From positions 19,646 to 83,645 of the forward strand of contig JBBTZT010000005.1 of the NCBI GenBank assembly GCA_038061225.1: a DNA stretch of 64,000 nucleotides, given 5' to 3'. Both the position numbers and the translations under genes were made by a program. This document shows, one piece after another, positions 45,373 to 48,390 of this stretch. The notes below the pieces were generated by a model, which was given only the letters and a program-made list of their open reading frames with translations, was not told the DNA's origin and searched no databases. Source of the DNA: Patescibacteria group bacterium (lineage in GTDB: Bacteria > Patescibacteriota > Microgenomatia > UBA8517). Positions within the stretch are counted from its first letter, which is position 1, and each line of letters starts with the position of its first letter.

Positions 45373-45846
45373 CTATCCTGAAGGAGGGACTGGTTTTTCG
45401 ACACGAGTTGTTTGCTGTTGTGCAGACTGTTTTTGCCCCCCACCCATTTTACGACCCTTCTTAGCAGAGGGCATTACTAGTTGATCAGTTACGAGTTGCG
45501 AGTTACGAGTTTTGACAGCCTCAATTTGAGCTTTTAAAACATCACGTTGTTCATAACTAAGTTCTGTAAATTCTTCCAAGGGAATATTTTCCCCTGCCTG
45601 AATTCTTCTCATTAAATCGTTAAATATTTTTTGTCTTCTTATATCTTTTAGTTCTGATTCTAGCGCCTGCAGATGTCTTCCATCTTTTTCTGCTATTGCA
45701 GTTTTATCTAAATTAGACTGTTCTTGATTTATAGGCTGTTCTAGAGGTTTGGTATTTTCGGATACATTAATTTGTTTTGCAACAGATTTCAAAAATTCTA
45801 GCGGTTCTTCTCCAATTGCTTTAATTGTTTTTTTGATAGGATTCAT
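45373..45846 (-). CDS. Hypothetical protein (157 aa)
   Basis: ORF only. It overlaps the recR stop. Confidence 0.3.
   Translation of the reverse strand: MNPIKKTIKAIGEEPLEFLKSVAKQINVSENTKPLEQPINQEQSNLDKTAIAEKDGRHLQALESELKDIRRQKIFNDLMRRIQAGENIPLEEFTELSYEQRDVLKAQIEAVKTRNSQLVTDQLVMPSAKKGRKMGGGQKQSAQQQTTRVEKPVPPSG
45488..45515. repeat. 7-nt tandem repeat (agttacg/agttgcg x4) in-frame inside hypothetical gene
   Basis: The copies are agttacg agttgcg agttacg agttttg. They encode NSQLVTDQLV. Confidence 0.6.
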
Positions 45847-46469
45847 AGTTCTTTCCTTCCTTCCAATGCTTGCGTAAGAGTAGTATCATCTGCATATTCT
45901 AAATCAGCACCTGTTGGAATACCCATACCTAAGCGAGTAATTTTTAATTTTAAATTTTTATCACGAAGTGTAGTCATCATTTTCAATTGTTTAACAAGGT
46001 ACATACTAGTTGCTTCACCTTCCATTGTAGGATTTGTAGCAATTATTATTTCTTGGATCTTAGATCCTACATCTTGGATCCGTTCAAGCAAAGCTTGAAC
46101 AAATATCTCGTCAGGTCCAATATTTTCCAAGGGGTTAATAGCACCATGCAGTACATGGTATAGACCTTTGTATCTTCCGCTTCTTTCAAATGCAATTAAA
46201 TCAAGTGGATTTTCAACAACCAAACAAGTTTTTTTATCACGATTATGATCAGAGCAAATGGAACATGGATCCGTTTCAGCCACATTTTTACAAATAGAAC
46301 AAAGAACAGTATCTTTTTTAAGGCGTGATAAGTTCTCACTAAATTCATCAAGTTCTTTCTGTGGAACATGAAGAAGATAGTATGCCAATCGTTGCGCAGA
46401 TTTTGGGCCGATTCCAGGAAGTTTTTCAAAGGACTCTGTTAAAGAAGAAATTGCTTTGGCAATTTTCAT
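45843..46469 (-). CDS. recR: Recombination protein RecR
   Basis: It has HhH (LPGIGPKSAQRLAYYL), a C4 zinc finger and a Toprim domain. Confidence 0.9.
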   Translation of the reverse strand: MKIAKAISSLTESFEKLPGIGPKSAQRLAYYLLHVPQKELDEFSENLSRLKKDTVLCSICKNVAETDPCSICSDHNRDKKTCLVVENPLDLIAFERSGRYKGLYHVLHGAINPLENIGPDEIFVQALLERIQDVGSKIQEIIIATNPTMEGEATSMYLVKQLKMMTTLRDKNLKLKITRLGMGIPTGADLEYADDTTLTQALEGRKEL

Positions 46470-46476
46470 GGAAATA

Positions 46477-46773
46477 TTATTTGCCTAATCCACCAAGAAG
46501 ACCTGATAGACCTCCACCCATTTCCATCATTTTTTTCGCAGCTTCTTTTTGGACTTTTTTCATGGCTTCATTTATAAGATCAACTAAAAAAGCCATATCT
46601 TCGCCGTCTTTTTTAATGTATCTTAACTTTTGGTCACCAGTAACTGATACTGACCATTCATTTTTTTCAACAGTTTCAATTATCTTTTCTAACTCTTTCT
46701 GAAGTGCGCTGGCTTGTTGCCTCATTTTATTTAACTGACCTATTTGTTTAAATTTGTCAAACATGTGCAACAT
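46477..46773 (-). CDS. ybaB: Nucleoid-associated protein YbaB/EbfC
   Basis: It is YbaB-like throughout and sits in the conserved dnaX-ybaB-recR order. Confidence 0.8.
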   Translation of the reverse strand: MLHMFDKFKQIGQLNKMRQQASALQKELEKIIETVEKNEWSVSVTGDQKLRYIKKDGEDMAFLVDLINEAMKKVQKEAAKKMMEMGGGLSGLLGGLGK

Positions 46774-47035
46774 TTATTATATTTTCCTTTTTGACTTCCG
46801 TCAACTGGTACTCAATTTTAATATTTTTACCTAAGATATTTAATGTGACGTCATCTAACATTTTTTTTGTTTTAACTTCTTCTAATTTATCTTTATGAAA
46901 TTTATAACTAACACCAAGTTTTAGCTTATTACTATCAAATTCAAGTAGTACTACCGATCTTAATAATCTTGCAATTGAAATACTTTGAGTCATCACTTTG
47001 TCAAGAATTTTGTTCCAAGTTGTTTCATCCATCAC
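46757..47035 (-). CDS. DnaX tau-subunit C-terminal domain (domain V-like), separate ORF in-frame with dnaX
   Basis: The pattern W-NKIL--V...L..L..A..L.F...KFHKDKLEE...IEYQL matches the conserved DnaX C-terminal region. It starts at a GTG immediately after the dnaX TAG, in the same frame. Confidence 0.55.
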   Translation of the reverse strand: MMDETTWNKILDKVMTQSISIARLLRSVVLLEFDSNKLKLGVSYKFHKDKLEEVKTKKMLDDVTLNILGKNIKIEYQLTEVKKENIINVAHV

Positions 47036-47986
47036 CTAAAGATTACACCATTTTATTATAGCAATCTCTAGAGGTAATTTCTCAATTGGGCTAACTTTTA
47101 TCATTTCATTTGACTTTAATATTAATTCAATGAGTGGAATCAATTCAAGAGATTCCGAATTAACCAATTTTTGATGTAGTATGTTTAATATCTCACTTGT
47201 TAAATAATGAATATTATTTGCTTTTTTTAGATCTGCTAGAATGATTTTAATATCTTTTTTAATTAAGGCTTCAACAAATACTTCTAGATCAATATTTAAG
47301 TCTTTAATTAAAAAACTTTTGTCGCTACTATATTGTTCTAAATTTTTGACAGCGTCTCGAAATGATCCTTTTGAAATTTTTATTATTTTATTTAAATCAT
47401 CATTTGTTATTTCGATCTTTTCTCCCTTAACAACTCTTTTTAATGATCTAAATATTTCTTCATCAGTTGCTTTAGTAAAAGAGATAGAAGTTGTTCTACT
47501 TTTTATAGTCTCGATTAATTTTTCGGGGTTAGTTGTTGCTAATATGAAATAAACATGGGATGGTGGCTCTTCTAAGGTCTTTAATAAGGCGTTTGACGCC
47601 TCTATTGTCAACATGTGAGCTTCATCAATAATATATATTTTAGCTTTAGCATTTGCTGGGGCTAGTTTTACAATATCACGAAGAGCTCTGACATCATCAA
47701 TTCCTCTGTTACTTGCCGCATCCATTTCGATTACATCGATATTTGTACCATTAGTTATTGAAATACATTGACTACATTTATTACAAGGTTTTTCTTTAGA
47801 TGACTCACAATTAATTACTTTAGCTAATATTCTAGCAGCAGATGTTTTACCAGTTCCTTTTGGTCCAGCAAATAAAAATGCATGTGGAATAGAACCTGAT
47901 TTAACAATATTAGTTAGTGTTTCTCTAACAGTGGCAATATCAAGTTCAGCAATCGTTTGTGATCTATATTTTAAATAATATGTCAT
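47036..47986 (-). CDS. dnaX: DNA polymerase III subunit gamma/tau, ATPase portion (domains I-III)
   Basis: It has Walker A GPKGTGKTS, a zinc module (CNKCSQC), sensor motifs and the domain III start (KISKGSFRDAVKNLEQ). Confidence 0.9.
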   Translation of the reverse strand: MTYYLKYRSQTIAELDIATVRETLTNIVKSGSIPHAFLFAGPKGTGKTSAARILAKVINCESSKEKPCNKCSQCISITNGTNIDVIEMDAASNRGIDDVRALRDIVKLAPANAKAKIYIIDEAHMLTIEASNALLKTLEEPPSHVYFILATTNPEKLIETIKSRTTSISFTKATDEEIFRSLKRVVKGEKIEITNDDLNKIIKISKGSFRDAVKNLEQYSSDKSFLIKDLNIDLEVFVEALIKKDIKIILADLKKANNIHYLTSEILNILHQKLVNSESLELIPLIELILKSNEMIKVSPIEKLPLEIAIIKWCNL

Positions 47987-48003: not shown

Positions 48004-48390
48004 CTATTCTTTGTGGTGAATTCCGAGTAAGTGTAACCCAGAATGACCAACTAATTCTAGTACCTTTTCTTCAATTAGTTTATTCTCCTTTTTAGCTTCG
48101 GCTAAAGCAATTGGAAAGCAAACAACAATCTCGCCAAGTTGCATTAAATTATTTGGATATTTAAAATCAGGTACTTCTGATTCTACAAATGAAAAAACGT
48201 TGTGAGTTTTTGTATCGTTTTTGTAGTACTTTTTACCAAAGGTTTTCATCTTTGCCTCGCTAACAAAGGAGACGTGACATTCTGCACTTGATACTATACC
48301 ATGATCTTTGAAAAACTTTTGTAAAAATTTTCTTACTTTTATTCCACTAATTGGATAATTTGATTGTTTTGAAACATTAATTTTAACCAT
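48004..48390 (-). CDS. ybeY: rRNA maturation endoribonuclease YbeY
   Basis: It has a C-terminal HSGLHLLGIHH metal-binding motif. Confidence 0.7.
   Translation of the reverse strand: MVKINVSKQSNYPISGIKVRKFLQKFFKDHGIVSSAECHVSFVSEAKMKTFGKKYYKNDTKTHNVFSFVESEVPDFKYPNNLMQLGEIVVCFPIALAEAKKENKLIEEKVLELVGHSGLHLLGIHHKE

Follow-up and report, generated by a model that had tools for sequence, protein, structure and literature searches.

A conserved fission of dnaX in a clade of Candidatus Woesebacteria probably separates a gamma-like DnaX from a free protein resembling the tau C-terminal domain

We analyzed a stretch of 64,000 nucleotides (the window; G+C content 32%) from a Patescibacteria group bacterium (GenBank assembly GCA_038061225.1, contig JBBTZT010000005.1, positions 19,646 to 83,645), in which the DNA polymerase III clamp-loader gene dnaX lies as 2 adjacent open reading frames (ORFs) on the minus strand. 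The first, ORF1 (47036..47986, stop codon included), encodes a short DnaX of 316 amino acids (aa) and ends in a TAG codon (47036..47038). The second, in the same frame and here called ORF2 or dnaX_C (46757..47032), runs from an ATG at 47032..47030 to a TGA at 46759..46757 and encodes a stand-alone protein of 91 aa that resembles domain V at the C-terminus of tau. Between the two lies only a GTG codon (47033..47035), which forms a 3-nt spacer and is an alternative start that would lengthen the ORF2 product to 92 aa. We consider it highly probable that this arrangement reflects an old gene fission, conserved among relatives, that cut dnaX at the linker joining domain III to the C-terminal domain, rather than a site of recoding, and that the 2 genes would specify a gamma-like DnaX and a free domain V-like protein.

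ORF1 is a complete gamma-like DnaX comprising domains I to III, as a preliminary description of this DNA had read it; the positions given there for the TAG and for the same-frame ORF behind it were also confirmed. In a profile search, ORF1 scored 297.4 bits against TIGR02397 (dnaX_nterm), for which the curated cut-off is 250, and PF13177 matched with an E-value of 1.9e-44, while the Pfam search gave no match on ORF1 for the domain III model PF12169. All catalytic motifs are kept. The P-loop GPKGTGKT occupies residues 41-48, and the residues that are invariant in 35 homologues include G41, G44, G46, K47, and T48 of this loop, the zinc-module cysteines C60, C68, C71, and C74, and S163-R164, the last being part of a sequence SRT in the window that we take to be the counterpart of the arginine-finger motif SRC of E. 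coli. The AlphaFold2 (AF2) model of ORF1 has a predicted local distance difference test score (pLDDT) of 85.5, and Foldseek aligned it over approximately 355 columns to gamma/tau chains from E. coli that are 360-370 residues long, with template modeling (TM) scores of up to 0.82. As modeled, ORF1 has the three-domain fold, including the helical collar of domain III. A gamma-like DnaX of 316 aa should form the ATPase core of a clamp loader.

The similarity of ORF2 to the C-terminus of DnaX is far beyond chance, which bears out the earlier reading of this ORF as the tau C-terminal domain. ORF2 matched positions 468-548 of the 585 positions of PRK14950, the NCBIfam model of full-length DnaX (E = 2.4e-11), and it matched Pfam DnaX_C (PF20964) at 24.9 bits (E = 2e-5), just below the gathering score of 26.2; the same model gave 29.6 bits on a relative (P0005). 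In alignments, ORF2 was colinear with the last ~100 residues of 8 fused DnaX relatives from the Genome Taxonomy Database (GTDB), in which both parts are encoded by a single ORF, and with tblastn it matched the C-terminus of the fused ORF in 51 fused metagenome loci. Its position in the operon, between dnaX and ybaB, is kept as well. All 12 ORF2 homologues from a sequence search were stand-alone proteins (56-105 aa, down to 52% identity), and NCBI lists the window's 2 products as separate entries, MEK7473018.1 ("DNA polymerase III subunit gamma/tau") and MEK7473017.1 ("hypothetical protein"). The predicted structure of ORF2, with elements in the order alpha-alpha-beta-beta-alpha-beta, has the fold of tau domain V, and this modeled fold is of the DnaA-domain-I type. 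The ORF2 profile weakly matched B. subtilis DnaA domain I (E = 0.0045), and ORF2 relatives matched PolC N-terminus II (PF11490) at ~1e-5; the DnaA domain I structures used in the comparison were those of B. subtilis (4TPS) and H. pylori (2WP0). It appears that a single fold, or a homologous family, unites the C-terminal domain of tau with DnaA domain I and the N-terminal domain of PolC. We placed ORF2 with DnaX rather than with DnaA or PolC because of its genomic position, its colinearity with fused DnaX, and its stronger matches to DnaX_C and PRK14950.

Two further proteins came up in a representative search for stand-alone DnaX_C genes outside the clade. A more distant DnaX_C homologue of 113 aa (P0140) is encoded on a 565-nt contig from Hainich groundwater (L034). 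The 150 nt ahead of it (L034 1-150) are AT-rich and non-coding, with every frame interrupted by stops, and there is no dnaX; the gene may have become stand-alone independently or have been relocated. A second candidate for a stand-alone DnaX_C outside the clade (P0053) was rejected, as it is a fused gene cut by the contig end.

The evidence for a fission comes from the relatives, for which we surveyed the contigs of the ORF2 homologues, 18 species-representative genomes, and 80 metagenome loci (loci are numbered with the prefix L). The split is found in Candidatus Woesebacteria/Microgenomates of the candidate phyla radiation (CPR), at about 30 related loci. A fused single ORF of 444-544 aa is present in 8 of the 18 GTDB loci and in all 51 of the more distant metagenome loci, with representatives among Curtissbacteria, Beckwithbacteria, and Saccharimonadales and in the Woesebacteria genome GWF1_31_35. 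In these fused relatives, the counterparts of the KWC near the end of ORF1 mark the end of domain III, a low-complexity, charged linker of 25-110 aa begins exactly at the break, and the domain homologous to ORF2 follows the linker. The ORFs are divided at the gamma/tau boundary, where the preliminary description had put the break, and the linker is wholly missing from the split clade. Among the 120 nearest DnaX clusters (60-100% identity), 102 have lengths of 314-347 aa and 18 have lengths of 437-520 aa, and PF20964 is present in 17 of the 18 long ones. A neighbor-joining tree of DnaX places all split forms, together with one fused form (L016), in a clade with 99% support, within which the main split group receives 87%. 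In the course of events that we propose, a single dnaX would have been cut at the flexible linker in the ancestor of a large Woesebacteria clade, with loss of the linker itself. Searches of the open-access literature for split or fissioned dnaX, CPR clamp loaders, and PF20964 returned nothing specific to this arrangement, which may be reported outside that scope.

The sequence between the 2 ORFs is free to vary, as the split-junction set (13 species-level genomes and 19 metagenome loci) shows. All split loci share the position in the protein at which dnaX stops, ...KWC followed by one to four residues, and their ORF2 opens with M-D-E..W.KIL. The dnaX stop across these loci is mostly TAA, sometimes TAG, and TGA once. 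The arrangement of the window, TAG GTG ATG, recurs in L035; TAA GTG ATG or TAA GTA ATG is found in L003-L010, L014, L036, and L116; TAG ATG in L017, L022, and L049-51; and TAG TAG ATG in L041. The stop and start overlap as TAATG in L001, L015, L018, L020, L040, L043, L045, and L052, and the ORFs overlap by 8, 32, and 50 nt in L042, L044, and L048, respectively. In L011, L037, and L038, a TAA or TAG is followed by 2 nt (TAA gt ATG in L011), and in L012, L053, and L118, a TAA is followed by 5 or 6 nt. The frame of ORF2 relative to ORF1 is 0 in, for example, the window, L003, and L017, +2 in L001, L015, L018, L020, and L011, and +1 in L042, L044, and L048, and it differs even between sister species (L001 versus L011, L012 versus L014, and L015/L018 versus L017). 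The distance from stop to start lies between -50 and +6 nt in all loci of the split clade but one. In that locus (L039 1425-1500; AMFJ01007473.1), a 65-nt spacer opens with a perfect hairpin that straddles the dnaX stop, CCGCAAGCT-TAA-AGCTTGTGG, followed by CTTTTT; judged by its sequence, the hairpin looks like an intrinsic terminator between the 2 halves. A junction so variable in stop, frame, and spacing has the pattern of 2 genes and not that of a recoding site. No sense codon stands at the junction in any split relative, and the C-terminal domain is clearly a separate gene there, an outcome that the preliminary description had itself named as speaking against its interpretation.

That interpretation was that stop-codon readthrough, or reinitiation at the GTG, might produce the 2 products that E. 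coli makes from its single dnaX. Programmed readthrough or recoding of the TAG at 47038..47036 would give a tau-like fusion of 409 aa (~47 kDa) beside the 316-aa gamma-like product. The reading has its attractions: the 2 ORFs are in frame with only TAG and GTG between them, about half of the split junction types are likewise in frame, and for Chlorobi and further genera, two-ORF dnaX genes that need recoding to make tau have been described (PMC3711429). A shared frame is by itself unremarkable, being expected by chance in one third of cases. Set against this, a conserved leaky in-frame stop, as expected of programmed readthrough, is not present: the relatives mostly carry TAA, 2 consecutive TAG codons stand in L041, and the frame changes between sister species, with overlaps of up to 50 nt and, in L039, a 65-nt spacer with its terminator-like hairpin. 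Programmed frameshifting or slippage fares no better, as there is neither a slippery or poly-A site, nor a fixed frame, nor a stimulatory RNA. The 120 nt upstream of the window's dnaX stop contain neither an X_XXY_YYZ heptamer nor a run of 6 or more A or T. In most relatives, too, this stretch is free of slippery heptamers and homopolymer runs, and the A7 runs of L001, L006, and L014 fall downstream of the stop. An Rfam scan gave nothing near any gathering score, and the RNA structure predicted locally is not exceptional (z = -1.6). Furthermore, the 25-110-aa linker of the fused relatives is gone entirely, and ORF2 is missing between dnaX and ybaB in 2 close relatives. We therefore consider recoding very unlikely.

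In E. coli, gamma and tau are both made from one gene by programmed -1 frameshifting at A_AAA_AAG, with an upstream Shine-Dalgarno (SD)-like element and a downstream stem-loop. As in E. coli, the short product of the window ends after domain III, at the same boundary, and it is the C-terminal, polymerase-binding part that separates the forms. Unlike in E. coli, the slippery site, stimulator, and Rfam element are missing, the long form has no continuous frame, the sole DnaX ATPase is the short form, and the C-terminal domain forms a protein of its own; the DnaB-binding domain IV of E. coli has no counterpart, its place in the fused CPR relatives being taken by nothing more than a low-complexity linker. 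Where dnaX consists of 2 ORFs in Chlorobi and other genera, a conserved poly-A tract (7-10 A) is present, the second ORF stands in a fixed -1 relation to the first, and recoding restores tau (Antonov et al. 2013; PMC3711429). The window resembles these genes, and that of Thermus thermophilus, in which transcriptional slippage operates, in having 2 adjacent ORFs of which the first alone is gamma-like. It differs from both in having no poly-A before the stop and in that frame and stop identity vary among its relatives.

A third set of explanations, raised in the same description, holds that the TAG is an error of sequencing or assembly, or a fresh nonsense mutation that has turned dnaX into a pseudogene. 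A change of a single base would suffice to create the stop, and one European Nucleotide Archive (ENA) assembly (a 178,555-nt contig) does contain fragmented genes (P0003, 58 aa; P0167, 84 aa; P0172, 96 aa). These fragments are probably homopolymer indel errors of that assembly; the break of P0003, which ends in KTKKC, coincides with an A8 run in dnaX_C (window ~46865-46875, minus strand). The TAG itself is no base-call error. The junction ...AAT CTT TAG GTG ATG GAT... is identical in 5 independent assemblies from 2 projects, namely 3 Hainich groundwater samples (one at 75x coverage) and 2 unrelated Sequence Read Archive (SRA) runs; the 2 ORFs together (1230 nt) show 0-2 mismatches. Exactly this 316-aa protein occurs on 11 contigs and the 91-aa product on 19, and the TAG also occurs in L035, a strain whose DnaX is 98% identical. 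Moreover, the split is common to dozens of species, down to ~58% DnaX identity. Pairwise dN/dS values are low (0.05-0.19 for ORF2 and 0.06-0.30 for ORF1), and these values, together with the intact motifs of ORF1, indicate that both halves are functional genes under purifying selection and rule out a pseudogene. We give an artefact or recent damage almost no credence.

Stop-codon reassignment exists in some uncultivated bacteria and phages, and if TAG were a sense codon here, dnaX would be a normal full-length gene under an alternative code. The window holds a single tRNA gene (Leu-CAA), and suppressor tRNAs might be encoded elsewhere. However, all 3 stop codons are used in the window, and ybeY, directly upstream of dnaX (48004..48390, minus strand), ends with TAG at a normal length of 128 aa, compared to 127-136 aa in relatives, from which it follows that TAG is a working stop and that code 11 applies. 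Several further long, conserved ORFs that end with TAG also have the lengths expected of them, the orthologous junctions have TAA, TGA, or other frames, and PGAP and other gene callers return normal gene lengths under code 11. The chance of a reassigned TAG is accordingly vanishingly small.

Several observations count against a fission into 2 separately acting products. Besides the shared frame in the window genome and in about half of the junction types, basal readthrough of the TAG may occur, typically in a very small fraction of ribosomes, and the 2 separate products, like the lack of a fused one, are predicted from the sequence. The fused L016 falls inside the 99% split clade, and L016, L020, and L022 are poorly placed in the tree, so the tree is compatible with a single fission or with several. 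On the side of ORF2, the DnaX_C score stays just short of its threshold and the structural model is of moderate confidence only (pLDDT 64). The role of the free DnaX_C as an alpha-binding module is drawn by homology from E. coli tau, and binding of the polymerase III alpha subunit may be expected on that analogy, although the homology to E. coli domain V is remote; a tethering role for a free domain would call for an explanation of its own.

Taking the 2 ORFs as separate genes, the second needs a route to translation. Judging from the sequence context, the most likely one is termination-reinitiation (translational or 70S coupling) at the ATG at 47032, 3 nt past the stop, by which DnaX_C would be translated following dnaX. 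Coupling is favored because the genome is SD-poor and because the stop-start distances are short in all loci but one. An SD-like motif precedes 4 of the 57 long ORFs in the window, which equals background; the AGGTG formed by the stop and the GTG abuts the ORF2 ATG without spacing, and in an SD-poor genome a missing dedicated SD is uninformative. The earlier proposal of reinitiation thus stands in part, with the start moved from the GTG to the ATG and the outcome changed: it would give gamma plus a free C-domain, and not tau. In the relatives compared, the conserved start is the ATG (M-D-E...); the GTG is not conserved, with GTG or GTA at this position in the closest relatives and neither in L017, L022, L049-51, and the TAATG overlap forms. 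As a separate observation on expression, TATAAT-like boxes lie 6-12 nt upstream of many ATGs in the window (starts 41590, 55206, 32337, 24275, 17057, and 26609, minus strand), and their closeness suggests leaderless mRNAs or mRNAs with very short leaders.

The window's own sublineage appears to have modified the second ORF. The DnaX_C of the window ends in ...NIINVAHV*; the tail A-E-E-[IM]-F-[SG], kept by all the other relatives that we examined, split or fused, has been deleted. Nucleotide alignment with L003, L006, L010, and L116 puts the deletion at ~29-32 nt and locates its scar at the 3' end of dnaX_C (46757..46772, minus strand; ATGTTTGA); it is found in all 5 assemblies. As a consequence of the deletion, the TGA of dnaX_C runs into the start of ybaB, with an overlap of 8 nt. 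This tail is of interest in view of work on E. coli, in which the isolated domain V of tau (tauC16) binds alpha at ~260 pM via its extreme C-terminus, and removal of 7 residues weakens binding to 7 µM (Jergic et al. 2007; PMC1888804). TauC16, also seen by cryo-EM (5FKU), is a laboratory fragment that is toxic in E. coli by competing with tau, whereas DnaX_C is a natural gene product with no tau to compete with, shares ~8% identity with the E. coli domain, and, in the window copy, is without the C-terminal motif.

In 2 close relatives, dnaX_C is missing between dnaX and ybaB altogether. L115, whose DnaX is 83% identical and which groups with the window at 100% bootstrap, and L117 (76% identical; also present on contigs of 121 and 549 kb) both read ...KWCV, stop, ~10 nt, and the ybaB ATG (L115 2440-2470; L117 2455-2480). 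None of the dnaX_C clusters from the ORF2 search lies on a contig of the size of L117's, which suggests loss rather than relocation. The 2 junctions look homologous, yet the DnaX tree puts the genomes in different subgroups, a pattern that could reflect loss plus recombination or 2 separate losses. Recombination at the locus is also indicated by L116, whose ORF1 and ORF2 are discordant: its dnaX_C is near-identical to that of L003/L010 (dS 0.12-0.16), while in dnaX it clusters with the window at 100% bootstrap and stands at dS 0.40-0.53 from L003/L010.

The free domain thus looks partly dispensable in the window's sublineage, and one may ask whether the window's dnaX_C is a decaying remnant heading for deletion, in an organism with effectively gamma-only DnaX. 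The deleted tail, which would correspond to the alpha site of E. coli tau, and the direct succession of dnaX and ybaB in L115 and L117 favor this, as do changes at the nearly invariant P15 and the conserved G22 and a three-taxon estimate of omega for ORF2 of ~0.34 on the window branch versus 0.03 on the L003 branch; for ORF1, the corresponding estimates are ~0.18 and 0.17. On the other hand, the ORF is intact and identical across assemblies, its pairwise dN/dS is still 0.16-0.19, and relative-rate tests of the window ORF2 with L118 and L001 as outgroups were not significant (6 vs. 3 and 4 vs. 4 unique changes). In addition, recombination at the locus blurs the branch estimates, and the dnaX_C of L115 and L117 might sit elsewhere in their genomes. 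On balance, we regard decay of the window's copy as possible but rather unlikely.

The genes that surround the split dnaX are conserved in a proS-HIT-yqeY-ybeY-dnaX-ybaB-recR-cysS neighborhood. On the minus strand of the window, dnaX_C is followed by ybaB (46477..46764), which encodes a nucleoid-associated protein (PF02575 on its orthologues) and whose start, MFDKFKQ at the ATG at 46764..46762, was placed from relatives in which these residues are conserved. Then follows recR (45843..46469), the last gene of the conserved dnaX-(dnaX_C)-ybaB-recR block, identified by RecR Pfam domains on the identical gene of L028. In relatives, toxin-antitoxin genes (PIN, MazE-like, and PhdYeFM) occur at varying points of this neighborhood (L001 404-820; L006 3934-4586; L115 103-273). 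On the plus strand of the window, positions 46400-46533, antisense to the ybaB/recR junction, weakly resemble part of an Rfam model, the 3' end of OLE RNA, at 20.7 bits where the gathering score is 50 (E = 0.005), which is probably a chance match.

In E. coli, tau and not gamma is essential, and the C-terminal domain of tau holds the polymerases to the clamp loader. Gamma of Caulobacter crescentus arises by partial proteolysis, and the known lineages in which gamma arises by frameshifting, slippage, or proteolysis keep full-length tau as well. The window resembles Caulobacter crescentus in having a lineage-specific way to a DnaX without the C-terminal domain; the Caulobacter route is post-translational and full-length tau stays, whereas the separation in the window is genetic and complete. 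Alpha is bound by tau only and not by gamma, for which 3 mechanisms of production have been described, in E. coli, Thermus, and Caulobacter (PMC4756838), and the split dnaX would add gene fission to the known ways in which bacteria make DnaX without the tau C-terminus. By analogy with these systems, we infer that clamp loader and polymerase would not be covalently tethered in these organisms. The broader picture, in which a Woesebacteria clade uses a gamma-only clamp loader while the polymerase-binding module of tau is free and, in some species, dispensable, is put forward tentatively, and we would give it a little less than an even chance. If true, these organisms would replicate without the tether between clamp loader and polymerase that is deemed essential in E. 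coli: 2 functions would reside permanently on separate polypeptides across a clade, some members of which do not have the free domain beside dnaX at all. The clade would then offer a natural experiment on the need for a covalent tether, with small proteins (36 kDa and 11 kDa) suited to tests of non-covalent assembly. For annotation, genes for "hypothetical proteins" of 91-103 aa at this position can be named DnaX C-terminal domain proteins, and in CPR genomes, in-frame ORF pairs of this type that are separated by a stop should be kept apart and given neither a recoding nor a pseudogene flag.

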